A stretch of 32,000 bases of DNA. It comes from Candidatus Lokiarchaeum ossiferum (GTDB lineage Archaea; Asgardarchaeota; Lokiarchaeia; Sigyniarchaeales; Promethearchaeaceae). Below are positions 8,200-32,000 of the stretch, one piece after another (position 1 is the stretch's first letter; the number at the start of each line of letters is the position of its first letter). The position numbers and the translations under genes are program-made. The stretch spans positions 690,001 to 722,000 of the forward strand of contig CP104013.1 of NCBI GenBank assembly GCA_025839675.1, given 5' to 3'. Below the pieces are notes generated by a model. That model did not search any database. It was not told the DNA's origin and saw only the letters and a list, made by a program, of their open reading frames with translations.

Positions 8200-8318
8200 A
8201 TCATTTTTTCCCAAAATCCACTGTTTTGACAATAGAGTAATTGATTTACGAAATAGAAGAGATTTGAAGTAATAACTTCTGACAATTCAATAAATTTTAG
8301 TTTATGATATAATTAGGG

Positions 8319-13102: not shown

Positions 13103-13702
13103 TTAAGATGTAAAAAATCCATTTTTGGTGTCAAACCATTTAGAAACTTGTTTTGGAGGTGAATAATCTTCAAGATAGGTAAAAATCTCCGAAACAGAGC
13201 TAACAATATGAAATAGCTCACGATAACTCGGTTTTGCAAAGTTTTTTTCCATAATAGATTGAAATTGAGCAAGCATTGGTCCGTAGAAATTATCTAAATT
13301 AAAAATAATGATTGGTTTGGAATGATAATTTAATTGTTTCAAGGTAATCACTTCTAAAAGCTCTTCTAATGTTCCAAAACCCCCAGGAAGAATTAGAAAA
13401 GCATCAGCTAAACTTTCCATCTTCGCTTTACGAGAATGCATATCATCAGTTACAAATAACTGGTCTAATTCATCAAAAGCAGGAACATTTTCATGAATAG
13501 ATTTTGGAATTACTCCAATAACCTTTCCCCCATGATTTTTCACAGTTTGAGCCACTTTCGCCATCATACCGACTTTTCCACCGCCATATACAAGATTATA
13601 ATCATTTTCAACCATTTTAATACCAATATCTTGCGAGAGAGAATAGTAAAATTGTGATAGGGCATCACTGGAAGAGCAATAAACAGCTATCCATTTTTCC
13701 AT
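13103..13702 (-). CDS. LOG family protein (TIGR00730-type Rossmann fold; cytokinin riboside 5'-monophosphate phosphoribohydrolase-like)
   Basis: Track start 13708 is TTG; ATG at 13702 gives MEKWIAVYCSSS. Diagnostic motifs are YGGGKVGMMAKVA and PGGFGTLEELLEVIT (PGGxGTxEE). Confidence 0.85.
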   Translation of the reverse strand: MEKWIAVYCSSSDALSQFYYSLSQDIGIKMVENDYNLVYGGGKVGMMAKVAQTVKNHGGKVIGVIPKSIHENVPAFDELDQLFVTDDMHSRKAKMESLADAFLILPGGFGTLEELLEVITLKQLNYHSKPIIIFNLDNFYGPMLAQFQSIMEKNFAKPSYRELFHIVSSVSEIFTYLEDYSPPKQVSKWFDTKNGFFTS

Positions 13703-13847
13703 AAACAAAATAGATTTTGATTTTATTAGAAAATTTGGGTTTATCTCTAAATGGTGGATATCGTGGGATTAAAAAACATGAATATTTTTATAGGAAATTT
13801 CCTTTTACGGATTAAGTTAAATCTAAGTATTAGATTTGGGGAAATAT

Positions 13848-14435
13848 ATGTCAAATAGAAGTCAATTTTGTCCAGAATGTGGAAGACCACTTGGTATTAA
13901 TGATGTCTGCGAAAATTGCGGTCATAATATCAATCTACAAGTAGAAACGCAAGAAAATCTTTCGTCTCCAGCTGAAAAGAAAGAGAACGAATCAATCACA
14001 AACCAAACCCATATAAATCCGCATAGACATCTGTGGAATCCAATTGAAAAAGTTGTAGTTATTTTGGGAACATATGGATGGATCTTTTCAGCAGCAATCT
14101 CATTGTTATTCCTTATACTATCATTTATTGGAGTAATTGCGAGTTTTTCGGCAAATTTTCTGATAGACTTGTTATTTTCGGGTTTTGCATTATTTTTGAG
14201 TGTTCAATATGGAAAAAAATTCGCAGAAAGAGTTAAAGCTCGTGATTGGTACTACATCGTAAATAATGTGTGGATTATTGGTAGCTTTCGGATTCCAAAA
14301 ATGTTGGTAATCGGTTTAATTTTAGTACCTTTGTTAAATTGGTGGGGAGGATGGATTATTTTGCTTCCCGTAATCGCTATTACATTTATCGGACCGGTTC
14401 CAACGCAATGGTCCGTAACTAAAAAAAATAATTAA
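13848..14435 (+). CDS. Zinc-ribbon domain membrane protein (paralogue A)
   Basis: Track start 13836 is TTG; ATG 13848 (MSNRSQFCPECGRPL...CENCGHN) parallels the start of the neighbouring paralogue. It has an N-terminal CxxC-x11-CxxC ribbon, a polar linker, then about four hydrophobic segments. A T12 tract lies 25 nt after the stop. Confidence 0.8.
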   Translation: MSNRSQFCPECGRPLGINDVCENCGHNINLQVETQENLSSPAEKKENESITNQTHINPHRHLWNPIEKVVVILGTYGWIFSAAISLLFLILSFIGVIASFSANFLIDLLFSGFALFLSVQYGKKFAERVKARDWYYIVNNVWIIGSFRIPKMLVIGLILVPLLNWWGGWIILLPVIAITFIGPVPTQWSVTKKNN

Positions 14436-14459
14436 TCCCTCTATCAGATAATGGAGAGA

Positions 14460-14471
14460 TTTTTTTTTTTT
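14460..14471 (+). terminator. Oligo-T tract (T12) 25 nt after the zinc-ribbon paralogue A stop
   Basis: T12 run, implying that paralogues A and B are separate transcription units. Confidence 0.5.
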
Positions 14472-14586
14472 AATTCTAATTTATGGGTTTTTATCAAATA
14501 CTTACTTCTTTAAGATAAAAAGACACATGTGACATTAAAATTAAATATTCTATTTACAAATAAAATACAAATTAAAATGAGTAAAC

Positions 14587-15414
14587 ATGAGTCAAACAAT
14601 TCAATTCTGCCCCGAATGCGGAGAACCCATTATTAATGCAGAAAATTGCAAAAAATGTGGATATAATAGCGGTAAATCTAAAACCGATATCTCCTACATT
14701 AGTGAGAAACGACTTAATCTGTGGAAAAAAATCAAACCATCAATAAAATGGATTGGCACATATTCTTGGTTTTTTACAAGCATATTTGCTTTTACGTTTT
14801 TAATTATTGGATTTATCCGAATCTTCACGAGAAATTCTCTTTGGAGTTTCATTTTCTGGGGTCTCGCCTTCGGATTATCACTATACTTCCTGAAGCCCTA
14901 CTCAGAAAAGTACAAAGAAGAACAATGGTATTATTTAGTCAATGATGTCTGGGTTTTGGGAAATCTTAGATTACCTAAGCTGTTAATCCTATCTCTATCA
15001 ATTGATATACTTTTGCTTGGATTTGGAGGGTTGATCACAGTAATCCCGATTGTTTTAGTTATATTTCTTGGTCCGACCCCATATCATTGGTTAACGGACA
15101 CAATCCAAGGTGCCTCTAAACCTCCAAAAGAACCAAAACTCAAGAAAGAAAAAAAAGTAGTAACAAAAGAGAAACTGGTAAAAGCAGAACAAGAGCAACC
15201 TAAAGAAAAGAAGAAGAAACCAGTTGACAAAAAACCAAAAAAAGAACAAGAGATAAAAAAAAAAGTCCAGAAAAATTCATCAGAAAAGAATGATAAACAA
15301 GCCCTATATGATAAATTTAATGCGGAAACAGGTAAAAAGGCAATATGGAAAAATGCAGAAACTAAAGCATATATTGCTTGGGAAGAATCCCAAAATAATA
15401 CAACGAACGAATAG
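14587..15414 (+). CDS. Zinc-ribbon domain membrane protein (paralogue B) with Lys/Glu-rich C-terminal tail
   Basis: MSQTIQFCPECGEPI...CKKCGYN, then about four hydrophobic segments. It shares with paralogue A the block WYY[IL]VN[ND]VW[IV][IL]G[SN][FL]R[IL]PK[ML]L and the ending [FV][IL]GP[VT]P..W. An extra ~110-aa K/E/P-rich tail follows. Confidence 0.8.
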   Translation: MSQTIQFCPECGEPIINAENCKKCGYNSGKSKTDISYISEKRLNLWKKIKPSIKWIGTYSWFFTSIFAFTFLIIGFIRIFTRNSLWSFIFWGLAFGLSLYFLKPYSEKYKEEQWYYLVNDVWVLGNLRLPKLLILSLSIDILLLGFGGLITVIPIVLVIFLGPTPYHWLTDTIQGASKPPKEPKLKKEKKVVTKEKLVKAEQEQPKEKKKKPVDKKPKKEQEIKKKVQKNSSEKNDKQALYDKFNAETGKKAIWKNAETKAYIAWEESQNNTTNE

Positions 15415-15757
15415 TGGCCTTCTTTTGTTTCAAATTGTGAGTTGTACCAATTTTTTTCAATAATTTTTCAATGACATTAGGAGCATATTGAAAGAATATG
15501 GAATTCGAAATATTGCATTGTTCATCATTTAAATGATATATTGAGATATTTATCGAATAACGTAATATTTAGATAAGAGGAAGTTTCAATTTTAGTATAA
15601 GATCATATTCAGATATCACAAATTTTTAAGATAGCTTTGAAAAGCCCCTGAAGCATGAAAGTAGGATAAAACTGAAATTTTTTTTAGGTAGAAAGACTTT
15701 GTTTAATTATCTAACAATTGATTGGAATTATAATTTCTAACGATTAGGTGAAAATGC

Positions 15758-15958
15758 ATGGCAAAATGTCCAGAATGTGGTGGGGAAATGATATCTAAGT
15801 CCAAAAGGAAAATTTGTGAAACTTGCGGATTGAGTTTAACTGGAAGTCAATACGATAGCGCATGGGATAAAATTCGAGATAGCGCCCGAGATGAAGAAGA
15901 TACCTCAAGAAAACGTAATCGCGAATATCTGAATTGGTATGAAAGTTCGAAAAACTAA
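15758..15958 (+). CDS. Small (66-aa) zinc-ribbon protein
   Basis: MAKCPECGGEMISKSKRKICETCG (CxxC-x13-CxxC), followed by a charged helical tail. AGGTGA Shine-Dalgarno 6 nt upstream of the ATG; T8 tract 42 nt after the stop. Confidence 0.7.
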   Translation: MAKCPECGGEMISKSKRKICETCGLSLTGSQYDSAWDKIRDSARDEEDTSRKRNREYLNWYESSKN

Positions 15959-15999
15959 TTCTTCCCGAAAATGCAATTATGATTCATAAGCACTTATCC

Positions 16000-16007
16000 T
16001 TTTTTTT
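16000..16007 (+). terminator. Oligo-T tract (T8) 42 nt after the 66-aa zinc-ribbon gene stop
   Basis: T8 run read directly from the sequence. Confidence 0.4.
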
Positions 16008-16181
16008 AATCTATTTCTGTGCCATCAACCCCAACCATAGTATTTAAGAAATTAATTAAATAAGATTAAATATACCCTAAATGTTATTTTATGTAGAGCT
16101 TAAGAAGAAAATTGATCAGAACAATCGAATCAATGACATATTTATAAGTTCTATTTGAAAAATTTGCATTATGTGATAGGA

Positions 16182-17378
16182 ATGGATGAGGATATCTTCG
16201 ATAACATACTAAGAACAGAATCTGTGTTCAAGAATCAAAAATCATTGAACCAAGCATGGGTTCCTGAAAAAGATCAGAAACTTCTTTGTCGAGATGATGA
16301 AATTAAAAGGCTTTTGGCAATTCATCGTCCTATAATTGATGCAAAAGGAGAATTTTCTGTAAATACTCTGATTTTGGGTAAAGGGGGCATCGGAAAAACC
16401 TTAACAGCTCGATACTTTGGAAGGAATTTTCGTCGAGTTGCTTTAAAACATGAAGTAAAAATTACGGTAGAATATTACGACTGTCTCCAACATCGAACGA
16501 AAAGTTCCATTCTCCGAAATATTTCAGAGAGGTTACATTATAGCGCAGGACATGGTTATTCGGATAACGAAATAATGCAACAAATTCTAAAGGAATTAAA
16601 AAAACGCAATGAATCGCTACTTATCATTTTAGATGAAGCCCATAACCTTTCTTCCGAAGATATTCTTGCTTTATTGAATGCATCCATAGGATTTGGTGAA
16701 AGTAATTCACGATTTTGTATAATATGCGTATCCCGGCCAACAGATTGGTATAAAGTTGATAATGAAAAAATTTCAAGTCGAATGCAAGATAAAATTTCAA
16801 TGGAACCCTATGCAAAAGAAGAAGCCCAAAAGGTTTTAAAATATCGGAAAAATTTGGCCTTTCGCGAGGGCATTATAGAAGATTTTGTTTTAGAATTAAT
16901 TGCTGATATTGTAGTCGAAAATAAGAACATGCGCACAGGCATAGATATAATGAGGGCTTGTGGGATTCGTGCAGACGAAAAAAGATTATCCCAAATTGAT
17001 TCGGATATGATATTGGAATCTCGAAATGATATAAATCCTACTTTCCGAGGGGATATTGTTGATCAATTGAAAATGCATGAAAAATTAACACTATGGGCAA
17101 TTGCTCGCACTTTACAAATGTCTCAAAATCCATTTACCAAAGTTGAGGCCGCATATGAAAACTATCAGGTTTTATGTGAAGAATTAGAGACTAAAGCTCA
17201 TGTTCCCATGAGTTTTCGAAAATATATTCGAAATTTAGCAGATGTGAAAGCGATCTACAAAGATTATCTAAATCCAACTAAAGACAAGAAAGGAAGACAA
17301 TTGCAGATTAAATTAACCGATATTAGTGCTGAAAAATTGATCGAATACTTTGAAAAATCAGTCCCTCGCCCTGATTAG
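16182..17378 (+). CDS. cdc6: Orc1/Cdc6 family AAA+ replication initiator (divergent)
   Basis: Track start 16155 is TTG; ATG 16182 is preceded by GTGAT (Shine-Dalgarno) and a TATA-like ATTTATAA at ~16142. Motifs: VPE...LLCRDDEI (N-terminal Orc1 pattern), Walker A LILGKGGIGKTLT, Walker B LLIILDEAH, a sensor-2-like MRTGIDIMRACG and a C-terminal winged-helix pattern LKMHEKLTLWAIAR. Confidence 0.85.
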   Translation: MDEDIFDNILRTESVFKNQKSLNQAWVPEKDQKLLCRDDEIKRLLAIHRPIIDAKGEFSVNTLILGKGGIGKTLTARYFGRNFRRVALKHEVKITVEYYDCLQHRTKSSILRNISERLHYSAGHGYSDNEIMQQILKELKKRNESLLIILDEAHNLSSEDILALLNASIGFGESNSRFCIICVSRPTDWYKVDNEKISSRMQDKISMEPYAKEEAQKVLKYRKNLAFREGIIEDFVLELIADIVVENKNMRTGIDIMRACGIRADEKRLSQIDSDMILESRNDINPTFRGDIVDQLKMHEKLTLWAIARTLQMSQNPFTKVEAAYENYQVLCEELETKAHVPMSFRKYIRNLADVKAIYKDYLNPTKDKKGRQLQIKLTDISAEKLIEYFEKSVPRPD

Positions 17379-17379
17379 T

Positions 17380-18387
17380 TTATTGAATTTTTTCTCCTGT
17401 GATTTCATTTGTATCTGGATCCATAAAGAATTCGAAATCGAAATGTACATGCTGGATCTGGACTAATTCTTCTAACATTTTTATTACAACTTTCATATCC
17501 TTTGGTCGATCTGCGGGCTCATATTGAGACATCTTCTTAACAACTTCATTATATTCAGTCGGAATATACCAATTTATGCTTTTTGGACTTAAAACATAAT
17601 CATCGTTATTTAAAATCTCAGAATCTTCTCGCATTATCCCGCCGGTGAAAACAAAATACATTAAGTGGGATAAATAATAAATATCTGAGGCGGCAGTAGG
17701 CATATATCCAAATTTAATTTCTGGAGGTGCTCCTTTTTGAGTAATGGGAATATCCATAGGCATTTTATCAGTCATGTATGGTTTGGGAGTATGAAAAATC
17801 CATTCTTCTCCAACATATTTTGATATTCCCCAATCGATTAAAACGGGCCAAAAATCATGAAGGTCATCTTCATCTTCTTCTTTAATGATGATTATGTTAT
17901 TCAGAGAAAAATCGCGGTGGACAATAAATTCATGGGAATGACAATAATCTAAATGTTTAGCTAAGGGAATGAAAATATTTCTAACAATACTGGACAAATC
18001 AAGATTTTCCAACCCTCGAGATGACTGAATAAATTCGCGATAAAAATCCAAAAATGTAATCCCTTTGATCAAAGAGAGTACCACATAATATTCTGGAGTT
18101 TGCAAATCTTCTTTCTTTTCATAGTGCAAGACTTTAACACAATGATTTCCGCAATTGGCTTGAGCAATAGTATTTAAGACTTCATTATCAAAGAACTCAG
18201 CACAATCATTTTTTTTTGTATATGGATCATAATATTGCTGATAAACAAATTCTTTTATTGCCACTTCTTCACCTGTTTCGGCATATTCGGCGAGAAATAC
18301 GGTGGAGAGTCCTCCCTTTCCTAAAATTTTTTTTACATTGAATGTGAATCCATCAATTTCTATAGATTTCCCAATCGTAATCGGCAT
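17380..18387 (-). CDS. Eukaryote-like Ser/Thr protein kinase (ePK fold) with atypical catalytic-loop and DFG residues
   Basis: 335 aa. Gly-loop GKGGLSTV, VAIK lysine (EVAIKEF), catalytic loop HRDFSLNN (17896..17919), DWG in place of DFG (17827..17835), APPE in place of APE, and a subdomain XI Arg (EPADRP). GGAGA Shine-Dalgarno upstream. Lies 22 nt downstream of the preceding gene. Confidence 0.85.
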   Translation of the reverse strand: MPITIGKSIEIDGFTFNVKKILGKGGLSTVFLAEYAETGEEVAIKEFVYQQYYDPYTKKNDCAEFFDNEVLNTIAQANCGNHCVKVLHYEKKEDLQTPEYYVVLSLIKGITFLDFYREFIQSSRGLENLDLSSIVRNIFIPLAKHLDYCHSHEFIVHRDFSLNNIIIIKEEDEDDLHDFWPVLIDWGISKYVGEEWIFHTPKPYMTDKMPMDIPITQKGAPPEIKFGYMPTAASDIYYLSHLMYFVFTGGIMREDSEILNNDDYVLSPKSINWYIPTEYNEVVKKMSQYEPADRPKDMKVVIKMLEELVQIQHVHFDFEFFMDPDTNEITGEKIQ

Positions 18388-18409
18388 TTAAATTCTCCAT
18401 TTAGTTTAC

Positions 18410-19402
18410 TCAGACAGAGTAATCCCACTCAGTGCGGCAAGCTTTGCAATAGTATTTTTTTGCATATTTTTTTACAGGAAAATAGGCGATAACTTTCTTT
18501 TTATTTTCTTGTTCAGCAAATTCTTGTTTGTCACATTTCGGACATTTAATTGCGCCATCAGATGGATATTCAATAGTTTGAATTCCATGAGTAGGGGCTT
18601 GAGATGAAGATATGGTAGATTTTGGAGATTTTGAATTTTCTGGTTTTGAATCTGAAGTTGAAATGGATTTTTCTTTTGTATCAGAGCGTGATTTCAAAAT
18701 ATCCGATGGTTTTCTGGAGACAACATCTTTAGGTGGTGATTGACGAGAAGAAATTTTTTCTTGAGACTGAGCTAATCCCGGGGAGATATAAGAAGATTTC
18801 GTAGTGGATGTGTTCGATCTAGTATCTTTATCTGGTAGTGTTTGCATGGAAATCGATTGTGAAGAAGATAATTGTTCAATTATCTGATCAATTTTAGTTT
18901 CGATGGAATGATTCTGTTTGCCCAAAGAAAACATACCATTTTTCAGTTGACCCATCAATTTTTCGGGGGATAAGGGGGCCGCTTTTTCTTTTTCAATTAA
19001 GTCATTTAGTTGTTTTTGAAGATCACTATTTTTTTGTTTTTCTTCAGCTAAGGTTAGTTTCATTCCTTCGATATCTGTTGCATAGCTTTTTGAAGATTCC
19101 TGCAGATTGGAAGCATTTTGTTGAGAATTCTCAAGTTCCTTTTGAAGCGTGATAATTTTTTGAGACAATTCTTCAATTTTTTGATCTTTTTCGATATTTT
19201 GTGAGGTAAGAATATCAATGGTTGTATTTGCTTCCATTTTCCCCGTTTGATCAGATGAAACAGAGGCGTTCTTTAGTTCATCAAGCTCTACTTGTAATGC
19301 ATTTATTTCCTTTTTTTGCTTTAATACTTGTCCCCTCAATGCATCCTTCATTTTAGCGAGTTTTGCAATTTCATCTTCTTTGATTTTAATTAATTCTTCC
19401 AT
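18410..19402 (-). CDS. Coiled-coil protein with Ser/Thr/Pro-rich linker and C-terminal zinc ribbon
   Basis: 330 aa. Residues ~1-180 are heptad-like and Glu/Lys/Leu/Gln-rich (KEINALQVELDELK, IITLQKELENSQQN, LQKQLNDLIEKEK). Residues ~180-270 are low-complexity Ser-rich with SP/SPPK/SPKS motifs. The C-terminus is CPKCDKQEF-x24-CKACRTEWDY. GAGGA Shine-Dalgarno upstream. Confidence 0.75.
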   Translation of the reverse strand: MEELIKIKEDEIAKLAKMKDALRGQVLKQKKEINALQVELDELKNASVSSDQTGKMEANTTIDILTSQNIEKDQKIEELSQKIITLQKELENSQQNASNLQESSKSYATDIEGMKLTLAEEKQKNSDLQKQLNDLIEKEKAAPLSPEKLMGQLKNGMFSLGKQNHSIETKIDQIIEQLSSSQSISMQTLPDKDTRSNTSTTKSSYISPGLAQSQEKISSRQSPPKDVVSRKPSDILKSRSDTKEKSISTSDSKPENSKSPKSTISSSQAPTHGIQTIEYPSDGAIKCPKCDKQEFAEQENKKKVIAYFPVKKYAKKYYCKACRTEWDYSV

Positions 19403-19674
19403 AATTTCTTCCTCAAACTCTTTAATCTTGAATAAAAATCGGTGTGAAAAAATAAATAGTTTTCCTAATCCTTTAATTATTTTGATTTAAATAAATATTG
19501 AAAATATTGTATAATTGCCACTCTTCATAAATTTCTTTCAAATTTCTTACCTCCGACAATTTTTGTTTATATCCTTAAGGATTTACAATCTATTGAATTT
19601 AATAGTCAAAATTAGATGGGTAAATCATCCCATTAAAAGAGATCTAGATAAGAAAGATTAAAAAGCGTCGAAAA

Positions 19675-21161: not shown

Positions 21162-22088
21162 ATGAACCAACCAAAAATCGCACTTATGGGTTTAGATAAT
21201 GCAGGGAAGACATCAATAGTAAGGGTGTTAAGTAGAGAATTTGAAAATATAAGCAATTTATCGCCCACTACTGGTATTGAACGTCATTATTTAGAGTTGT
21301 TGGATACGAAAATAATGATCTGGGATTACGGAGGTCAAAAATATTATCGCGAACAATTTCTAAAATCCTCTAAGATTAACCTTTCACAAACAGATGTATT
21401 ATTGTACGTGATTGATATTTTAGATAGTGAAAGATATGAAGAGTCATTAGATTATTTAAAGCACATTTTTCAAAGACTTTTTGAGAACAACCACCAGTTT
21501 CATTTTGGAATTTTATTTCATAAATTTGATAACATTGAAGATACAACTTTTCGTGACTACATGAAGAATTTGCTCCACGAAATAGTTAAAATGTTAGGAA
21601 AGTCTCCAATTCCAATCGAATTTCGGAAAACTACCATTAATAATCCTCTATCTATTATCGATTCCATATCAAAAATGATTTTTAAATTTGAAGGATTTAC
21701 AAACCCAATATCAAATTCATTAACGATTTTTGCAAATAAATGGAATTTGAGCAGCATTCATTTATATGCAAGTAAAAAAATTGAATTGGGATCTTATTCA
21801 GTAAAGAAACCCCCTACTTCAGAAGTAAAAAAGGAATTACTTGCGTTTATAAAAAAGTATGATACAATTTTAGATGTCGTTTTTAAGTTAGAAAAAGAAA
21901 TTAGACAAGAAACTTACCATTTCACCAAATTCTATTTGAATACAGGCAATATCCCTAATCCTATTTATTTAGTTTGGTGTTCAAAAGTTTCTATGTCAAA
22001 GAAATTCGAAAATGGATTATTTAGCCTTAAAGAATCGATTAAGACACTTTTATCAAATATTAACATAAATCAACCGATGTTAAATTAA
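21162..22088 (+). CDS. Small GTPase of the Arf/Sar/Rag superfamily fused to a ~140-aa C-terminal alpha/beta (roadblock-like) domain
   Basis: 308 aa. G1 is GLDNAGKT (21189..21212, identical to the Sar1/Arf P-loop). There is a switch-I Thr in SPTTGIE. G3 is WDYGGQ (21321..21338) and G4 is HKFD (21519..21530; His replacing the Asn of NKxD, as in Rag/Gtr). The length and the C-terminal half with alternating strand/helix propensity resemble Rag/Gtr architecture. Confidence 0.8.
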   Translation: MNQPKIALMGLDNAGKTSIVRVLSREFENISNLSPTTGIERHYLELLDTKIMIWDYGGQKYYREQFLKSSKINLSQTDVLLYVIDILDSERYEESLDYLKHIFQRLFENNHQFHFGILFHKFDNIEDTTFRDYMKNLLHEIVKMLGKSPIPIEFRKTTINNPLSIIDSISKMIFKFEGFTNPISNSLTIFANKWNLSSIHLYASKKIELGSYSVKKPPTSEVKKELLAFIKKYDTILDVVFKLEKEIRQETYHFTKFYLNTGNIPNPIYLVWCSKVSMSKKFENGLFSLKESIKTLLSNININQPMLN

Positions 22089-22447: not shown

Positions 22448-25400
22448 ATGAAGTTTAAAAAAATTTCTTCCCTTGCAATGCTTTCTTTAATATTTATACT
22501 TCCTGCATTAAATTCAATTACCCAGATCTCACCTCGCACAGAATTTTTTGAACCAGTCAGTATTTTACCAGATGAGAGATCAATTAATAATCCTTTATTA
22601 AAATCAGCAGCATCCGCATATCCGTGGTGGAATGACACCTACGAATACCGTATCCCGGTTGTGTTAAACCCTAATGGTGTATCACATGATAATGCACCGA
22701 TAGAATTTCGTATAGATTTCGCTTCAATTTTAGACGTTTCAGGTAATCCCATCTCAGACGAACATGTTAATACAACAAATATCCAAGTTATAGAGCAGAC
22801 GACATCAGGAGGTTTCACACAATATGTTAATCAATATGATCCACTACCACTTTCAAATGGTGACGAAGGAGAAATCGCCTGGATTATCGATCAAACAGGA
22901 TTTAGCACCAATAAAACATTCTTTATTTATTTTTGTTTAGGAGATACTGATAAATATGGTGATCCAGTTTATGATTCGCCCTATTCCCGCAGTTTATCGG
23001 ATGACCCTATTCGATTGTTCCATAATGGATTTGAAGAAGGAACTGTGGCGCCATTAGATCCATTTATGACATATAGTACGGATTATGGAGCAAGTACAGT
23101 AATTTTAAATGATTATACAACAGGAATTCAAGGAGAAGGTGCTTTAGAGATACAAGGTGATATATGGGCAATGCAAGCATTACCTGCATCAATAGATACG
23201 ACAGATCCAACATATTCAAATCTTTTTTTAACCTATCAAGTTCAAGCTTATGGTTTAATCAATAAATTTGATTATATGGCCATGGGAGTAGCCGCTTCAG
23301 AAAATGATTTTTATTGGCGTGGATATCAACATTGGGGAGAAGATTCCCATGTAAATTTGTATTCTGACTCCATTTCAAGTGCTAATGTTTGGAATTATTT
23401 TGCTATGGATTTACAAACGACTGTTGATTATCCGGATGGATTGGTAAATTATGTTTTATTTATACTGGAAGATAGTGACATAAAGAGAAACGATGATAAT
23501 CGATTTTATTTTGATGATATTTCAATCTGGAATCAAGAAGTTGGACAACATCAGACAACTGATGTAGAAGTAGATATTCAAGCACTTGAGATACCATTTG
23601 CGAGTATTAACCTTCTTGTTTTAGATTCTGATGGGAATGCGCTTCCAAATGCCAATGTTGAAATGAAAAAAAGCGGTGAAGAAATTTATTATTATGGAAC
23701 TACTGATGAAAACGGTCAAATTTCATTTACTGATATAGATTCAAGTCAAGATTATGATTTTACTCTAAATTATTCCACCCAAGGCATTGAAGCTGCTGAA
23801 ATTTTTAATATTGCATCGGAATCTTTCAATAGTGATTTACAAGATATTACTATCTTTGCCGATATATGGACGATGAATTACAGTGTCACGGATTATGATG
23901 GTGATATTTTCAATGACGGCTATGTTGTGCTCTACAATAATACTGCAGCTCAAGAACCAGTCGGTAATGTCACTTTAGATGGTAGTGGCAATTCAATAAT
24001 TCGATACTCCAATAAAACGGACAGCTATAACTATAGCGTCTTTTATGATACGAATTTGTTCGACCAAGGAACCTATGCAACAAATCAACTTGAAATTGCC
24101 TCAGATCTCATCAGTTCAACCCAAAATGAATTAGTCAGCGCAAATATATCTACATTGACATTCAATGTATCTGGCTACACTTCAACAGATACAAGTTCCT
24201 TGGGATATGCGTCTTTAGAAATTACAAATGGTACTTATGGGGATTCAATTGCAAATATCACAACCGATTCTGCAGGATTTGTTGATTTTTTGTATTTTCG
24301 ATCAAATAACTCAGTATTAAACAATTATACTATGCATCTTAAATTTTTAGGTGGAAATCAATCAATAAACGCAACAGATACACCTCAACGGTCGCCTAAA
24401 CTTGGTGGTGAATGGCAAGATTACCTCAATTTTAGTCTTGATACAAAAATGACAAAAGATATTTTAGTTGATTTTCTCGATGATGTTGAATATTCAACGA
24501 ACATCACAGCCGTATCATTTTCTTCAGGAGCCAATTTCAACCCAGATTGGGGAGAACTCTTAGAATTCCAGGTTAATTATACATCATACGATGGAGATTC
24601 TGTAATTTTAACAGATCCCGATACAATAGAATATGAAATGTATGATACAGCCTTGAATTTAGTGAAGAGTGGAACTTTAGTGAAGCATTTAGAAGGTATT
24701 TATAATTTAACTTTAGATTCATCCGAATTTATTGCAGGTTTCACATACAGGTTAGATTTTATTGCCTATAAGTCGGGTTATCCATCTCCAACAAATACTC
24801 CAAATGCCATTATTAAAATTGAAAAGTTAGGAACTACATTTGAAATATATGACGCATCAACAGGTTTAGCGATAGATGGACAAACAATAAATAAAACATG
24901 GGGGGAGATCTTTGATGTGGAAGTAGTTTATAAATTACAAAGTCCTGAAGAAGAATTATCAGGAGCAACTGCAATATTGGATTGGGATTATGATGTGGAA
25001 GCATCCATGGTTGAGCAAAACTATGCGGGATTTACCAATTATACATATTCCGTAAATACATCTAAATCTCCAACGACAGGTCTATTTGATTTCGATTTAA
25101 CTGCAGATTTATTGAACCATACTTCTTTAGCTTCTTGGTTTAGATTAGAAATCCTTGAAATTCCCACTGCAATAAATCGGGATGCCTATACAGATCCGAT
25201 TACCCTATATTGGGAAGAAAATTTCACGATGTCCTTGAATTATACCGATACTTTCAATAACGTGGGTATTGAGGAAGCTTATCTTTACTACAATATTGTT
25301 GGTGACCCAGATTTCAATGAATATCCAATACCGGAAACAGGAACATCAGGAATCTACGAGATAACTTTGAATTCCACATCTTTTGGAGAAGCTGGAACTT

Positions 25401-28400
25401 ATACATTCCAAATTGTTGGGCAGAAAACGAACTATGAAAATCAACAATTATGGATTTCGGCAGTAATAAATATTGTCCCAACGATACTTACAGCAGAATC
25501 AATTGAATTAACACCCTATTGGAATCAAAATTTTACTTTGTCCTTGAATTCGACAGACACTTATTTTAATCGAGCGATTAATGATAGTTCAATTACCTAT
25601 TCTGTTTCTGGTCCAGCGAGCTTTAGTGAATCAGGTGAGATAAATTTTGTAGGGAATGGAATCTATGAAAAAGAATTCAACACAACCCACTTTAACCAAG
25701 CGGGATTATATACTTTTCAACTTGAATCAACCAAAAATCAATATGAATCCCAACTACTGACAATCACCGTAGAGATTCAAATTGTTCCCACTACCTTATC
25801 TTCAAATCATAATGATGATAAAATAACAAAGCCATTAATTTCCGCACCATTTGACATTTCGGTGCATTTTGAGGATGTATTAAATTCTTTAAATATATCT
25901 GATGCCACTGTGTCATATAGTGCAACCGGCCCAGAAAATTTTGCTGATTCAGGAACAATGATACATGTTGGAAATGGAAATTACAATATTTCGGGCATAG
26001 ATCCTGCTACTGATTATGGTTCAATAGGAACCTACTCATACCAGATAATCGCCACCAAAAATCAATTTGAAACACAATATATTACAATCACAATAAATAT
26101 AGGGATAATTTCGACAAATCTTACATCCAACCATCAGAATAATGAAATAAGCGTGTATTGGGATGAAGATTTCACACTTAGCATAAATTTTCTGAAATAT
26201 GATGACAGTACACCTATTAGTGGAGCAACAATCGCCTACGTGATAACAGGCCCGAGTAGTTATAGTAGTACAGGAATTTTAGATTATATTAGTGATGGTA
26301 TCTATTCTCAAGATTTTGATACCAATGTTGTTTATTCGACCGCAGGTACCTATACATTTGTCATTTCAACGAATATATCAGGATATGAATCTCAGCAAAT
26401 CACAATTTCCTTGACGATTGAAACAATTCCAATGAATTTATCCACAAGTAACACAGAATTGACTATTTTTTGGGAAGAAGATTTTACTCTTTCGGTAGAT
26501 CTTGCCGATGGAAGAAATTCAAATGCAATCACATCGGCGTTAGTGAGTTATTCAGCTGCAGGAACAGGAAGTTATTCGGATATAGGAACACTCACTCATG
26601 ATGTGGGAAATCCGGGCACATATCGAATCACATTTAGTACTCAAACATTTAATCAAGCCGGTATTTACACATTTAGTATTTCAGCAACAAACCAATATCA
26701 TATTGAACAATCGCTAACGATTACTATCAACATAAATACTCGAGAAACAGCGATTTCAACACCTAGTACTGAAATTGGAATTTCATATGATGATAGTTTT
26801 TATTTGAATATTACATTCACAGATGTTTCATATCCAGCAAGTCCGACAGGTATAAGCGGTGCAACAGTTAGTTACAGTGCATCCGGACCAAGTAGTTATA
26901 CAAGAGTTGGGATATTAACCTACAATATTAATGGAAACTATTTAATCCAATTTAACGCTTCTGAAGATTTCCCACAAGAAGGGACATATAATTTCTTAAT
27001 TACTGCGACCAAAAATCAATATGAAACTCAACAAGTCTCGATAACAGTAAATATCAATATTATTAATACTACGCTGACGGCCACTGAAGATTATATTAAT
27101 AAAATTGCAGGAGAATCATTCACACTTTCCGTTTTATACTATAATGTTACGAATGGAGAGACTCCAGTGAATGGCGCCACTGTATCATATACACTATCAG
27201 GATATTCTGGTGCATCATTAACTGAAGATGGAGCAACGGGAAATTATTCCATCCAATTGAATGCAGATGATTTCGGAACTGGCACATTCACTTTCCAGAT
27301 TACAGCCACTAAAAATCAATTTGAAACTCAACAACTCCTGATAACCGTTGATATAGGGTTAAATGCAATGAACTTGACGGTTTCTCTAATTGAGAATCCA
27401 GCCCAGATATATTGGAATGACAATTTCACCCTGAGTGCAGAATTGAAAGAAGACGCAGACTTTGTTGATGAAGCTATTGTATCCTATTCGGTTATTAACT
27501 ATCCAAATATTAATGGAACTTTTATGGAAGGTACCAATATATATACAATTGAGTTCAATTCTTCCTCTTTCCCCGAAGCAGGTTCGTATTCGTTTGAAAT
27601 TGAAGCAACAAAAACAAATTACGGAACCAGAACAAAAACAATCATAGTCATTATTAAGATTGTTCCAACGAATTTCACCTCATTGCACGTGGAAGATACG
27701 ATTAATGCCCATTGGGAAGAAGATATCACGATCTTTGTCAATCTGACAGATATTCAAGACACTAACAATGCCATCAACATAACGGATGCAAGCGTTACCT
27801 ATACGGCAGCAAGTTTAGCCGCCTTTAGTGGCCCGTTGACACATTCGACAGGAGGTTTGTATTACCTTTCCTTTAATGCGAATGATTTTGGTGGAGCGGG
27901 ATCCTACACAATTAAAATTACTGCCCAAAAAAATCAGTTTGAAACCCAACAACTCACCATTACGGTGATCGTTGAAATTTTGCCCACAATTTTGGTGAAT
28001 GAAAATAGTGATTCGGTCGGCTATTGGAAAGACGAAGTCACCTTTTCATATAATTTTACCGAAACTTTTACTTCCACACAGATAACTGACGGTGTGATAT
28101 TATATTCGGTGGAACAGATCCCATCTCTCACAGGGACATTAATACATCAAACAGAAGGTATCTACACCGTTTCATTAAATACAAGCCAATTTTTGAGTGC
28201 TGGAACCTATACAATTCACCTTGAAGCCACTAAATTCCAATATCAAACCCAAACTAAATCTCTCACTTTAACGATTTCCATTTTACCCACTAATGTTTCT
28301 ATTATTGCGGAAAATGTTGTTGTTTATTGGGAAGAGAATTTCAGCCTCTTGGTAGGATATGCTGATACCCATAATGATATTAATGTAACCGATGCGATTG

Positions 28401-31400
28401 TTTCATCCAACTTAGTAGGAAGTACATTGTATAATAACTTATTAACCTACATTGGAAATGGATTGTACTTGTTAGAATACAACACAACAGAATTCCCAGA
28501 TGCAGGGAACTATACGTTCCAAATAAATCTTGGAAAAAATCAATATGAATCCCAACAAACATGGATCTATGTGCAAATTAATATTCTTCCTACTCACATT
28601 TCCTCTGAAAATGAAAGTATTGTAATTTACTGGGAAGATTCCTTTACATTATCTGTTGACTATGTTGATACACACAATAATAATCGATCGATAAGCGGAG
28701 CAACTGTAGCATTCTTACAAAGTGGGGAATCTGTTTATAGAACTATGAATTATCAAGGAGATGGAACTTATACTTTTGTTTTGCAATCAGATATTGATTT
28801 TACAGAAGCGGGACCTTATGAATTTTTAATTGAAGCTAAAAAGGATCAATATCAAACGCAAATATTTTGGATCGATGTTGAAATTTTGATTGTCCCAACA
28901 AATGCGAGTTCTAACCACAATAATAATAAAATTAACAAAGAACTTGTCGATTCATTCCAAATCTCAATCAATATGGAACAAATAATTGAGGTGCTTAATC
29001 CGATAGGGATCCCTGATGCAACAGCGACATTCAGTGTATCAGGACCAGAGGGATATAGTGCTCAAGGATCCTTATCCCATATTGGATCGGGAATTTATAA
29101 TAGTTCGATAATCCAAGCGAGTGCAGAATATGGCGGAATAAAAGGAACTTATGTCTACCAGATTACAATTACTAAGAATCAATATGAAACTCAATATTTG
29201 ACAATTACTGTTAATATTGCAGTAACTCAAACAATTTTGACCACGAATCATCAAAATGATGAAATTAATGTGTATTGGGATGAAGATTTTGTCTTGAATG
29301 TAACTTTCTCAGTATTAGAAGATACAGTTCCTATTACGGAAGGTACAATATCTTTTACAATGACTGGACCTGGAAGCTATACAAATTCAGGTAGTTTAAC
29401 CCATATGGGCTCAGGCGTCTATGAAAAGCCCTTTGATACAGATTCAGTATTTACATTAGCAGGTACATATACATTCTATCTCACTGCAACAAGGTTAGAT
29501 CATGAAACCCAACAAAAATCAATATCTCTAACAATATCAATAATACCTACTAACTTAAGTTCGATTGTAGGTTCTTCCGTTTCCCTATTTTGGGAAGAAT
29601 CGTTTACGATTGCTGCTAATCTAACAGATGGTAGGGACAATACACCTATCACAAGTGCATTACTGCAATATACTGTCACAGGTACGGGAGATTATTCAGA
29701 TGTGAATATACTAATTCACCAAACAGATGTTCCAGGAACATATAATCTGACTTTTAACTCGATTAATTTTGGTCAAATTGGAACGTATAATTTTTTGGTG
29801 ACTTCCACTAAATCCCATTATGTTTCCCATCAATTCACAGTGACTGTACATATTTTAATCCGAGAAACTGATTTTATGGCAGAAGAAACAGACATTGATA
29901 TCACCTATGATGAAAGTTTCTTGATCAACACAACATATACAGATATTTCCCATCCAACAATTCCTCAAGGAATTTCTGGTGCAACTATAAGTTACACCGC
30001 GACGGGAGATAATAGTTATGTCATGGTGGGAGAATTGACTTATATTACAAACGGGCAATATGGATTTACTTTTATTGCAGATGTGGTTTTTCCTCAAGAA
30101 GGAACCTATTCATTCCAAATAGTTGCAGAAAAGGACAACTATGAAACAAAACAATTGACAATCACGGTAAATGTCATTGTAGTTTCCGCAAACTTGAGTG
30201 CATCTGAAGAATTGATTTCAAAGAGTTGGGAAGAAAACTTCACCTTAAGTATTTTGTATACAAATATCACAACTCCAGGAAGTCCATTGGGGATTGAAGG
30301 TGCCACAGTGTCTTATACAATTTCTGGATTGCCTGCATACTCAGGATCCCTTGAAGATGTGGGTTTGGGAAGATATGAACTGGAATTGAATACAAGCGAT
30401 TTTACAGAATTTTCTGATTCAGGAACATATGTTTTTCAAATTACTGCTGAAAGAAATCAGTTCCAAACAAAACAAATCTTGATCTCCCTTGAAATGGATT
30501 TAAAACAAATGAATGTTACAATAACGCTTGTTCAAAATCCAACTCAGATATTTTGGGGGGATAACTTCACTCTAAATGCAGATCTTAAAGAAGAAGAAGG
30601 ATTTGTTACAGGAGCAACTGTTTTTTACACTGTTTTGGATCATCCTACAATATTCGGAAATTTCTCTGAAGGTGGGAGTTTATATTCAATTCTGCTAAAT
30701 TCGACTATTTTCCCAAATGTTGGTTCATATACCTTCGAAATTGAAGCATCAAATGACGGCTATGGAACACGGACTAAAACATTTGTTGTTGAAATTAAAA
30801 TTGTACCAACGGAATTACTTTCTTTACACATAGACGATACAATCGAAGCATATTGGAATGATCCTATTACCATGAGTTTTCAATTCACCGATATTCAAGA
30901 TGAAATATCTCCCACATTCATTACTGGAGCCAAAATTACATACACTGCTACTAAATTAACACCCTATACTGGCAATTTAACTTATCAGGGTGATGGAATT
31001 TATAGCTATTCATTCAATGCAAGTGATTTTGGTAAATCTGGAACCTATTCAATTCAAATTCGGGCAACTAAAAATCAGTATTTATCACAGCAACTTGTTT
31101 TAACTGTTGAGGTCAATATCCTTGAAACCAGTTTGGAAACTGATGCTTTGAATTTGGATGCATTTTGGTTAGACGAGGTGAATTTTACGGTTTCCTTCCA
31201 AGATGTTACAAACAGTGAAATGATAACAAATGGAAATATAACCTTTTCAGTATCTCAGGTTCAAGGGTTAAATGGAACAGTAACTCATATGAATTCTGGA
31301 ATCTATTCCATAACATTGGATACAACACAATTTCTTAAAGCAGGGGAATATACCATTGTATTTGAAGCGAAAAAATTCCAATATGAAACCCAAACATTAT

Positions 31401-32000
31401 CCTTCATATTGGACATAGTAATACTTCCAACAGCCTTTACTACTGATCAATACAATATTAATATTTTATGGGAAGAGAACTTTACCATAACAACTCATTA
31501 TTCAGATACGGAATATGACAATAATATTAATGATGGAGAAGTAAAATTCACAGTGGGTCAAGTTTCAGGCCTTTCAGGAAATCTTACAGTAGAAGGAAAT
31601 GGAAATTATAATATAGAATTAAGCTCTACGCAATTCCTTGGGGTGGGAACTTATTCCATTTTTATTCAAGCAACAAAATACCAACATCAAACAAGAGATA
31701 TTTTAATTTATTTAACAATCAGTCGAATTGATACTACTATCAATCAATCGATTTTCTTACAAAGTGATGTTGTTATGAATGTTACTACTTCAAATGTATT
31801 CCATTTCAGTTATATTGATCAATATGATCGATTTATCGAGAATGCAACAATCGCTTATTACGAATTACAAAATGGTAATACGATAACTTCTGGCACACTT
31901 GAATACCTCGGAAATGGAATCTATGAACTCGATTTGGATCTTGAATTGAAACCGGTGGGGACTTATTTGATAGTTATTCATTTGGGAATTGAAAATTACT
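22448..32000 (+). CDS. Giant secreted/surface repeat protein (more than 3184 codons in window, 3' end beyond the right edge)
   Basis: Absent from the ORF track because there is no stop in the window. ATG 22448 is preceded by GTGAT. Signal-like N-terminus MKFKKISSLAMLSLIFILPALNS. Hand translation of 22448-23640 is stop-free, and frame checks at 25730 and 31664 give the same frame (position mod 3 = 2). Domain content by eye: a DUF2341-like start (YPWWNDTYEYRIPVVLNP); a possible jelly-roll region; about three carboxypeptidase-regulatory-like beta-sandwiches (e.g. LVLDSDGNALPNANVEMKKSGEEIYYYGTTDENGQISF); then at least 22 modules of ~105 aa. Only short ORFs occur in the other five frames here. Confidence 0.9.
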   Translation, partial: MKFKKISSLAMLSLIFILPALNSITQISPRTEFFEPVSILPDERSINNPLLKSAASAYPWWNDTYEYRIPVVLNPNGVSHDNAPIEFRIDFASILDVSGNPISDEHVNTTNIQVIEQTTSGGFTQYVNQYDPLPLSNGDEGEIAWIIDQTGFSTNKTFFIYFCLGDTDKYGDPVYDSPYSRSLSDDPIRLFHNGFEEGTVAPLDPFMTYSTDYGASTVILNDYTTGIQGEGALEIQGDIWAMQALPASIDTTDPTYSNLFLTYQVQAYGLINKFDYMAMGVAASENDFYWRGYQHWGEDSHVNLYSDSISSANVWNYFAMDLQTTVDYPDGLVNYVLFILEDSDIKRNDDNRFYFDDISIWNQEVGQHQTTDVEVDIQALEIPFASINLLVLDSDGNALPNANVEMKKSGEEIYYYGTTDENGQISFTDIDSSQDYDFTLNYSTQGIEAAEIFNIASESFNSDLQDITIFADIWTMNYSVTDYDGDIFNDGYVVLYNNTAAQEPVGNVTLDGSGNSIIRYSNKTDSYNYSVFYDTNLFDQGTYATNQLEIASDLISSTQNELVSANISTLTFNVSGYTSTDTSSLGYASLEITNGTYGDSIANITTDSAGFVDFLYFRSNNSVLNNYTMHLKFLGGNQSINATDTPQRSPKLGGEWQDYLNFSLDTKMTKDILVDFLDDVEYSTNITAVSFSSGANFNPDWGELLEFQVNYTSYDGDSVILTDPDTIEYEMYDTALNLVKSGTLVKHLEGIYNLTLDSSEFIAGFTYRLDFIAYKSGYPSPTNTPNAIIKIEKLGTTFEIYDASTGLAIDGQTINKTWGEIFDVEVVYKLQSPEEELSGATAILDWDYDVEASMVEQNYAGFTNYTYSVNTSKSPTTGLFDFDLTADLLNHTSLASWFRLEILEIPTAINRDAYTDPITLYWEENFTMSLNYTDTFNNVGIEEAYLYYNIVGDPDFNEYPIPETGTSGIYEITLNSTSFGEAGTYTFQIVGQKTNYENQQLWISAVINIVPTILTAESIELTPYWNQNFTLSLNSTDTYFNRAINDSSITYSVSGPASFSESGEINFVGNGIYEKEFNTTHFNQAGLYTFQLESTKNQYESQLLTITVEIQIVPTTLSSNHNDDKITKPLISAPFDISVHFEDVLNSLNISDATVSYSATGPENFADSGTMIHVGNGNYNISGIDPATDYGSIGTYSYQIIATKNQFETQYITITINIGIISTNLTSNHQNNEISVYWDEDFTLSINFLKYDDSTPISGATIAYVITGPSSYSSTGILDYISDGIYSQDFDTNVVYSTAGTYTFVISTNISGYESQQITISLTIETIPMNLSTSNTELTIFWEEDFTLSVDLADGRNSNAITSALVSYSAAGTGSYSDIGTLTHDVGNPGTYRITFSTQTFNQAGIYTFSISATNQYHIEQSLTITININTRETAISTPSTEIGISYDDSFYLNITFTDVSYPASPTGISGATVSYSASGPSSYTRVGILTYNINGNYLIQFNASEDFPQEGTYNFLITATKNQYETQQVSITVNINIINTTLTATEDYINKIAGESFTLSVLYYNVTNGETPVNGATVSYTLSGYSGASLTEDGATGNYSIQLNADDFGTGTFTFQITATKNQFETQQLLITVDIGLNAMNLTVSLIENPAQIYWNDNFTLSAELKEDADFVDEAIVSYSVINYPNINGTFMEGTNIYTIEFNSSSFPEAGSYSFEIEATKTNYGTRTKTIIVIIKIVPTNFTSLHVEDTINAHWEEDITIFVNLTDIQDTNNAINITDASVTYTAASLAAFSGPLTHSTGGLYYLSFNANDFGGAGSYTIKITAQKNQFETQQLTITVIVEILPTILVNENSDSVGYWKDEVTFSYNFTETFTSTQITDGVILYSVEQIPSLTGTLIHQTEGIYTVSLNTSQFLSAGTYTIHLEATKFQYQTQTKSLTLTISILPTNVSIIAENVVVYWEENFSLLVGYADTHNDINVTDAIVSSNLVGSTLYNNLLTYIGNGLYLLEYNTTEFPDAGNYTFQINLGKNQYESQQTWIYVQINILPTHISSENESIVIYWEDSFTLSVDYVDTHNNNRSISGATVAFLQSGESVYRTMNYQGDGTYTFVLQSDIDFTEAGPYEFLIEAKKDQYQTQIFWIDVEILIVPTNASSNHNNNKINKELVDSFQISINMEQIIEVLNPIGIPDATATFSVSGPEGYSAQGSLSHIGSGIYNSSIIQASAEYGGIKGTYVYQITITKNQYETQYLTITVNIAVTQTILTTNHQNDEINVYWDEDFVLNVTFSVLEDTVPITEGTISFTMTGPGSYTNSGSLTHMGSGVYEKPFDTDSVFTLAGTYTFYLTATRLDHETQQKSISLTISIIPTNLSSIVGSSVSLFWEESFTIAANLTDGRDNTPITSALLQYTVTGTGDYSDVNILIHQTDVPGTYNLTFNSINFGQIGTYNFLVTSTKSHYVSHQFTVTVHILIRETDFMAEETDIDITYDESFLINTTYTDISHPTIPQGISGATISYTATGDNSYVMVGELTYITNGQYGFTFIADVVFPQEGTYSFQIVAEKDNYETKQLTITVNVIVVSANLSASEELISKSWEENFTLSILYTNITTPGSPLGIEGATVSYTISGLPAYSGSLEDVGLGRYELELNTSDFTEFSDSGTYVFQITAERNQFQTKQILISLEMDLKQMNVTITLVQNPTQIFWGDNFTLNADLKEEEGFVTGATVFYTVLDHPTIFGNFSEGGSLYSILLNSTIFPNVGSYTFEIEASNDGYGTRTKTFVVEIKIVPTELLSLHIDDTIEAYWNDPITMSFQFTDIQDEISPTFITGAKITYTATKLTPYTGNLTYQGDGIYSYSFNASDFGKSGTYSIQIRATKNQYLSQQLVLTVEVNILETSLETDALNLDAFWLDEVNFTVSFQDVTNSEMITNGNITFSVSQVQGLNGTVTHMNSGIYSITLDTTQFLKAGEYTIVFEAKKFQYETQTLSFILDIVILPTAFTTDQYNINILWEENFTITTHYSDTEYDNNINDGEVKFTVGQVSGLSGNLTVEGNGNYNIELSSTQFLGVGTYSIFIQATKYQHQTRDILIYLTISRIDTTINQSIFLQSDVVMNVTTSNVFHFSYIDQYDRFIENATIAYYELQNGNTITSGTLEYLGNGIYELDLDLELKPVGTYLIVIHLGIENY
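25160..32000 (+). repeat. Tandem array of about 22 coding modules of 300-325 bp (~100-108 aa each) inside the giant ORF
   Basis: The recurrent module ends ...AG.Y.F.I.A.K(N)QYE[TS]Q...I.V.I.I(V/L)PT and the next begins ...[IVL][YF]W[ED]E[ND]FT[LM]S. By-eye boundaries: 25160, 25475, 25785, 26100, 26425, 26740, 27055, 27355, 27660, 27975, 28280, 28585, 28895, 29220, 29545, 29860, 30175, 30490, 30800, 31120, 31425, 31730. Two more divergent modules probably precede these (about 24440-25160). Confidence 0.85.
25785..32000 (+). repeat. Higher-order repeat: ten-module cassette (~3.1 kb) present twice in tandem (block A ~25785-28894, block B ~28895 to beyond 32000)
   Basis: Module n of block A matches module n of block B much better than it matches its own neighbours. 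Anchors: identical 20-mer GTGTATTGGGATGAAGATTT at 26153 and 29270 (offset 3117 nt = 1039 codons); GAAATTGAAGCA at 27596 and 30737 (offset 3141 nt = 1047 codons). Unusual linkers correspond position for position (NINTRETAIS / HILIRETDFM; DIGLNAMNLTVSLIENPAQIYWNDNFTLSAELKED / EMDLKQMNVTITLVQNPTQIFWGDNFTLNADLKEE). Confidence 0.8.

Follow-up and report, generated by a model that had tools for sequence, protein, structure and literature searches.

In titin, the middle immunoglobulin (Ig) region carries 10-Ig and 6-Ig super-repeats, with one to three of the 10-Ig super-repeats found across vertebrates, and multi-domain duplication has been argued to avoid adjacent near-identical domains that would co-aggregate (PMC12241362). 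Modular stalks are also described for bacterial fibrillar adhesins and Acinetobacter BAP (PMC9210967, PMC4647330), and repeat-built surface rods for the periscope proteins (PMC8201768). Candidatus Lokiarchaeum ossiferum, which belongs to the small number of Asgard archaea in culture, is without an ordered surface layer (S-layer), and 'complex surface proteins' protrude from its single membrane (PMC9834061); this S-layer-free envelope is thought to be relevant to cell–cell contacts. Here, we analyse a super-repeat in a giant gene of this organism, NEF87_000608, most of which lies in a 32 000 nucleotide (nt) stretch of contig CP104013.1 (positions 690 001–722 000, referred to below as the window). 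The gene encodes a putative surface protein with a long stalk of Ig-like modules, in which a block of modules has been copied as a unit.

The open reading frame (ORF) starts with an ATG at 22448, immediately downstream of a stop codon, and no further stop interrupts it on the forward strand up to the window end (22448–32000; 3184 codons), in line with the giant ORF of an initial annotation made from the letters alone. Its translation is an exact match to residues 1–3184 of NEF87_000608 (UYP44323.1; P0158), a 3420 amino acid (aa) hypothetical protein of strain B-35 that runs off the window end. Segmentation with a self-trained hidden Markov model (HMM) yielded a stalk of 22 strong Ig-like modules of 100–111 aa each, named M1–M22 (aa 903–3184). 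The initial annotation had proposed that such modules are organized at a higher level, as a ten-module cassette duplicated in tandem. The hierarchical repeat is real. In offset scans, the strongest diagonal of the protein was at 1047 aa (20.6% ungapped identity versus approximately 11% at the 101–106 aa module period) and that of the DNA at 3141 nt (39.1% versus 32.8% at 303 nt), with secondary peaks at 1039–1040 aa and 3117–3120 nt that were also well above the single-module period. The approximately 3.1 kb diagonal is thus stronger than the approximately 310 bp one, as predicted. The 20-mer GTGTATTGGGATGAAGATTT was found at 26153 and 29270 exactly, and the 12-mer GAAATTGAAGCA at 27596 and 30737; each has only these two occurrences, with 0 expected by chance. 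No exact match between the two copies is longer than this 20-mer (26153–26172, recurring at 29270–29289), which codes for the VYWDEDF motif in M4 and M14. Linkers recur in the reported manner, with RET at approximately 26735/29855, IINTTLTATEDYINK / VVSANLSASEELISK at 27056/30176 and NAMNLTV / KQMNVTI at 27356/30494. The copies have diverged too far for Tandem Repeats Finder, which reported nothing in this frame, so the repeat had to be shown by the self-HMM and an identity matrix.

In the 22 × 22 matrix, eight module pairs (M3–M13, M4–M14, M5–M15, M6–M16, M7–M17, M8–M18, M9–M19 and M10–M20) were reciprocal best matches, with aa identities of 54, 47, 42, 54, 49, 54, 51 and 47%, respectively, against a background of 32.7% (s.d. 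5.0, maximum 44.9%). The 59/106 identical residues counted by hand in the initial annotation for the modules at 27355 and 30490 agree with the 54/100 measured here. At the nt level, the pairs are 52–64% identical and background modules 47.6%. Identity across the blocks (42–54%) is higher than that between neighbouring modules (25–44%). All eight were recovered as sister pairs by neighbour-joining, with bootstrap values of 62–100% for this protein alone and 57–100% with an orthologue added, and they were still sisters when five related proteins were included in the tree. A sliding identity plot and a global alignment of the copies showed raised identity only from aa approximately 1111 to approximately 1962; elsewhere, only a generic C-terminal strand motif was shared.

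These observations agree with the original view of an in-frame duplication of several modules together, followed by divergence. Block A (M3–M10; 25778–28276), supported by reciprocal best matches, bootstrap and sliding identity, is the first copy, and block B (M13–M20; 28886–31417), supported by offset scan, matrix, tree and sliding identity, the second, with order and frame kept; the limits of the blocks were taken from the sliding identity plot. Between them lies a spacer, M11–M12 (28277–28885). In our judgement, it is likely that a block of eight modules was duplicated and that the two-module spacer between the copies creates the ten-module period. Of the proposed ten-module cassette duplication, the period of ten and the copying of a block are thus retained, while the duplicated unit is reduced to eight modules.

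The ninth and tenth pairs are at background level by identity (34% for M11–M21 and 27–29% for M12–M22) and are not sisters in the tree, so the expected pairing of each module with its counterpart holds for eight positions and fails for these two. For comparison, five relatives with a single set of modules, found with a module profile, were added: P0003 (a paralogue in the same genome), P0004 (from Ca. Harpocratesius), P0005, P0007 and P0008. M22 grouped with the last module of all five (100% bootstrap). The best matches of M21 were the penultimate modules of P0003 and P0004 (44%), and it grouped with that of P0003 at 40% bootstrap. M11 grouped with module 3 (m3) of P0005 and m4 of P0008 (75%), and M12 with the following modules, P0005 m4 and P0008 m5 (46%). 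Given the placement of M22 with the relatives' last modules and of M11 with modules of P0005 and P0008, M21–M22 are therefore not copies of M11–M12. On these groupings, M21–M22 (31418–31999, with M22 cut by the window end) are old, conserved terminal modules of the family, and M11–M12 is an old di-module type that lies outside the duplication of blocks A and B. The leading modules M1 and M2 (25154–25777), defined by the self-HMM, are unique and have counterparts at the equal position in related single-set proteins: M1 grouped with the first strong module of P0003, P0004 and P0007 (95% bootstrap) and M2 with P0004 m4 (62%). Only end positions (types 1, 2, 3 and 21, 22) map clearly onto the single-set relatives. 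The suggestion that the order of the modules is important does not follow from the data, because block duplication keeps order mechanically and the interior modules of the relatives do not map one to one.

For the eight pairs, the proportions of synonymous (pS) and non-synonymous (pN) differences were 0.66–0.79 and 0.28–0.40, respectively, compared with background values of 0.71 and 0.47. Synonymous sites are saturated, and the duplication is therefore ancient. Saturated pS together with a pN well below that of other module pairs would fit a shared origin and long purifying retention of both copies, each of which is intact, in frame and recognisably paired with the other.

It had been suggested that more cassette copies lie beyond the window. 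There are none in this genome: 236 aa remain, in which the last part of M22 is followed by one or two degenerate β domains, a transmembrane helix and a cytoplasmic tail. Cassette number does differ in a related genome. A syntenic metagenome orthologue from a related Lokiarchaeum, P0002 (4495 aa, 76% identical), has the RagA-like GTPase gene upstream and the 376-aa gene downstream, as in L. ossiferum, and contains three cassettes rather than two, the extra one being an exact ten-module M3–M12 unit. Its 32 modules are arranged as Q1–Q2, two M3–M12-type cassettes (A1 and A2) and then M13–M22, and the block B modules each have a P0002 orthologue at 82–91% aa identity. Comparison of A1 with A2 gave pS values of 0.67–0.75 at cassette positions 3–5, 10 and 12 and of 0.19–0.29 at positions 7–9; for the orthologous modules 13–22 of the two species, the range was 0.35–0.54. 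On these values, positions 3–5, 10 and 12 of A1 and A2 would have diverged before the species split and positions 7–9 after it. When the P0002 A-type cassettes (13436–19660 of its locus, L001) were compared with block A and its spacer (window 25778–28885), the result was again a mosaic, with pS from 0.19 to 0.84 by position. The mosaic points to an old triplication with cassette loss in L. ossiferum, to later gene conversion between cassettes, or to both. We considered Q12 of P0002 as a clean type-12/type-2 hybrid at a crossover and rejected this, as there is no clear breakpoint and the module resembles a diverged type-12 module. No additional loci came out of two scans of genome contigs and one of metagenome contigs that used the C-terminal region as the query, so the copy-number comparison rests on one orthologue.

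Another complete genome of L. ossiferum (CP163304.1) aligns colinearly with B-35 at 98.2% nt identity and without indels. The two strains differ at 1.8% of sites in the gene, with mismatches concentrated at 27398–27547 (the N-terminal half of M8; 25 in a 150-nt bin) and 28448–28597 (the M11/M12 boundary; 15 in a 150-nt bin). By contrast, hardly any differences separate the 3′ half of M8 even from its counterpart in the other species. These two patches suggest a hypervariable or recombinant segment of a surface protein. For M18 as the source of the M8 patch by gene conversion, the count was 15 sites against 10.

Taking these data together, we propose that an ancient in-frame segmental duplication within the gene, via unequal or illegitimate recombination, made the block copy. 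The ten-module period would later have become the unit of copy-number change, with recombination in that register adding or removing exactly ten modules. Each event would change the extracellular stalk by ten Ig-like domains, or approximately 40 nm assuming approximately 4 nm per domain, and duplication by the block would elongate the stalk while keeping near-identical domains from becoming neighbours. Several points weigh against this proposal. The route by which the spacer M11–M12 arrived between the block copies is not explained. The identity of M5–M15 (42%) falls inside the background range (maximum 45%), the bootstrap values for M5–M15 (63%) and M7–M17 (62%) are modest, and the trees are neighbour-joining trees of Poisson distances over approximately 100 columns rather than maximum likelihood trees. 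Owing to the saturation of pS, the ratio of non-synonymous to synonymous rates (dN/dS) of the pairs has no reliable estimate and is not interpretable. The protein is equally long in both L. ossiferum strains, and copy-number change must therefore be rare. The third cassette is known from one metagenome contig of 9× coverage in which A1 and A2 share an exact stretch of 233 nt; countering an artefact there, the flanking modules are just 62–73% identical. Finally, the AlphaFold2 (AF2) model of the N-terminal head (three sequences) was unusable, with a predicted local distance difference test score (pLDDT) of 41, and the stalk-length function, glycosylation and surface location of NEF87_000608 are putative.

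Among other routes to the same array, a tandem duplication of M1–M10 into M11–M20, followed by the unique M21–M22, deserves mention first, although we consider it unlikely. The arithmetic is attractive (10 + 10 + 2 = 22), M11 is the joint-best match of M1 (39%), M1, M11 and M12 cluster weakly (49%), and relatives show a '1,2,3-type' order (P0004) and an '11,12,13-type' order (P0005). The leading pairs would then have to have diverged faster, or to have been overwritten by conversion from related genes. However, M1 sits at 95% with the modules that lead the arrays of P0003, P0004 and P0007, to the exclusion of M11, which itself goes with P0005 and P0008 at 75%; the split between types 1 and 11 is thus older than these proteins, while in each of the eight body pairs the two modules are mutual closest relatives. 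M2–M12 identity (35%) is at background level.

The model of the initial annotation, an exact ten-module tandem duplication of M3–M12 into M13–M22 with the last two pairs diverged past recognition, appears less probable again. It accounts directly for the period of ten and for the extra P0002 cassette being exactly M3–M12, and M11 and M21 share ILPT...WEENF across the linker and module start. Against this, M11–M21 (34%) and M12–M22 (27%) are no more alike than background, and the tree places M22 with the terminal modules of five single-set proteins at 100% and M11 with P0005 m3 and P0008 m4 at 75%, making the M21 and M22 types older than the event that gave rise to blocks A and B.

The order of types in the relatives might instead suggest a fusion or recombination of two paralogous genes, one P0004-like and headed by types 1–2, the other P0005-like and headed by types 11–12, without any intragenic duplication. 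These leading types do occur in different single-set members, with their order kept and followed by a type-3/13 module. Such an origin is improbable, however, as M3–M10 and M13–M20 are sister to each other rather than to modules of P0004 or P0005, and no internal C-terminal, transmembrane or N-terminal remnant is present between M10 and M11. Repeat-induced misassembly, to which repeat arrays are generally prone, or chance likeness in a homogeneous array, for which the silence of Tandem Repeats Finder might be cited, can be dismissed as the source of the pattern, given copies only 52–64% identical in nt with no exact match longer than 20 nt, an architecture that is the same and indel-free in two complete genomes, and eight of eight reciprocal best matches on one offset.

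Returning to the block of eight with its two-module spacer, a more ambitious interpretation is that a period of ten modules serves Lokiarchaeum lineages as a functional length quantum instead of being a frozen accident. The reach of the membrane-anchored, glycosylated stalk would be tuned in steps of ten Ig-like domains (approximately 40 nm), position-specific modules would be retained for docking periodic partners or neighbouring stalks, and the protein would form a major part of the 'complex surface densities' that take the place of an S-layer and make contact with syntrophic partners. We regard this as speculative and doubtful. Within it, the mosaic of positions homogenized after speciation, others saturated and a hypervariable patch fits an actively evolving interaction surface.

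The AF2 model of M3–M4 (50 di-module sequences) had a pLDDT of 95.1 and consisted of two all-β sandwiches. Foldseek comparison of this model with the PDB yielded fibronectin type III (FnIII), macroglobulin (MG), Ig, invasin, titin Z1Z2 and large-adhesin repeats (E 1e-9 to 1e-6), all of them generic Ig-like folds. Single modules did not belong to one Pfam family, showing a few weak matches to Invasin_D3, Big_3_5 and THSD1_N. The last of these (PF24306) was rejected as an assignment for the array: its 61-bit whole-protein score is made up of partial hits, the best of which spans 27 of 100 model positions, and alone it matches three of 21 single modules (best E = 4.8e-4). A search with the module profile recovered 1338 cluster representatives at E ≤ 1e-3, many of them 2000–5500 aa long with 10–29 repeats. 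Among the handful whose source was checked were proteins of Lokiarchaeia and Thorarchaeota. We surveyed the top 150 of these for higher-order repeats. A period of ten was confined to NEF87_000608 and its orthologue, a period of four was present in P0054 and a period of two in P0102, P0125 (from Thorarchaeota) and P0126, with 48–70% identity at the offset, while most had no higher-order repeat or simple nearest-neighbour similarity. Block duplication therefore recurs in the family, as the periods of P0054, P0102, P0125 and P0126 indicate, and is not the rule.

Outside the array, the protein begins with a probable signal peptide (MKFKKISSLAMLSLIFILPALNS; 22448–22516, forward strand), recognized by eye from a basic-then-hydrophobic pattern in the translation. 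It is followed (22517–25153, forward strand) by a head (aa 24 to approximately 380) and then pre-array β-sandwich domains (aa approximately 380–902), the latter with weak CarboxypepD_reg, Big_1 and MG4 matches at aa 382–444. The head carries a conserved WWNxxYEYR motif common to related proteins and, over aa 24–380, has no Pfam and no NCBIfam match. A transmembrane helix at aa 3318 was read from the full-length sequence and precedes a tail of approximately 85 aa. The protein has one cysteine in total and is enriched in N-x-S/T sequons (87, versus 52.6 ± 6.7 in shuffled sequence). Taken as read by eye, the leader and the C-terminal membrane anchor on either side of a 22-module stalk would amount to a fibrillar adhesin-like plan, and NEF87_000608 is predicted to be a type-I membrane surface protein that is probably N-glycosylated. 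Its automatic UniRef name, 'cadherin', is not supported, as no cadherin family was present among the Pfam matches at E ≤ 1 or in the single-module scans. A corrected domain map is now available for NEF87_000608, which ranks among the largest L. ossiferum surface proteins.

The other genes of the window fit an Asgard archaeon, with a Gtr1/RagA-like GTPase, Cdc6/Orc1, a Ser/Thr kinase, four major facilitator superfamily (MFS) transporters and a GC content of approximately 33%. The Gtr1/RagA-family small GTPase, a eukaryotic signature protein, is encoded directly upstream of the giant gene (21162–22088, forward strand), a position kept in both related loci (L001 8797–9723 and L002 8717–9643). Downstream, just past the window end, a 376-aa gene without a Pfam family (L002 20265–21395; L001 23490–24620) begins one base past the stop codon of the giant gene in both relatives and could be a co-transcribed partner. 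Four consecutive MFS_1 genes of 437–456 aa on the reverse strand (1605–2927, 4043–5356, 5498–6820 and 6862–8232) look like a tandem paralogue cluster. A 326-aa ORF with no Pfam match (10004–10984, forward strand) includes 2.3 copies of a 30-nt repeat rich in lysine and glutamate codons (10715–10783) and is overlapped on the opposite strand by a 168-aa ORF. Upstream (15415–16154) of the Cdc6/Orc1 gene (16155–17378, forward strand), a search for origin-like repeats found nothing convincing, with two weak inverted repeats only.

How, then, does this locus compare with the systems introduced above? In common with fibrillar adhesins and BAP, NEF87_000608 combines a predicted signal peptide and a cell anchor with a long stalk that carries a non-repeat head at its distal end; the Ig-like modules of 80–110 aa are of several types, and module number is polymorphic between genomes. 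It differs in its Asgard host, in being anchored by a C-terminal transmembrane helix and tail rather than via the cell wall, a type I secretion system (T1SS) or the outer membrane, and in having modules that singly match no curated Pfam family, and any role in adhesion would be putative. The likeness to periscope proteins is that surface rod length follows repeat number, which would shift the projection of the tip. However, periscope proteins have near-identical DNA repeats and vary between strains, whereas here adjacent modules share approximately 48% and the A/B pairs 52–64% nt identity, two strains at 98.2% identity are equal in length, and variation is seen only between species, in steps of ten modules. 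The diverged repeats and constant length between strains rule out a periscope protein.

The closest parallel is with titin. Both are built of Ig-fold domains in tandem, with each domain of a block closest to its equivalent by position in the next block; blocks are copied as units, the number of blocks varies between species (two versus three cassettes in Lokiarchaeum), and unique terminal domains flank the array. By analogy, block duplication that keeps neighbours dissimilar (25–44%) may have the same co-aggregation rationale in the archaeal protein. There is no sign of common descent, the likeness being one of organization, with generic Ig-fold matches only. Titin is found inside the muscle cells of eukaryotes, and each of its domains has its own exon, whereas NEF87_000608 is archaeal and would be extracellular and membrane-anchored, is encoded by a single ORF, and has a block of eight modules plus a two-module spacer of separate origin. 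Block duplication within a repeat array is a textbook mechanism; what is new here is an Asgard archaeal example. These results predict that the stalk of the species with three cassettes is approximately ten domains longer than that of the species with two, and that the protein is N-glycosylated. More broadly, they show that super-repeat evolution, known from titin, also operates in archaeal surface proteins, with cassette number differing between close relatives.

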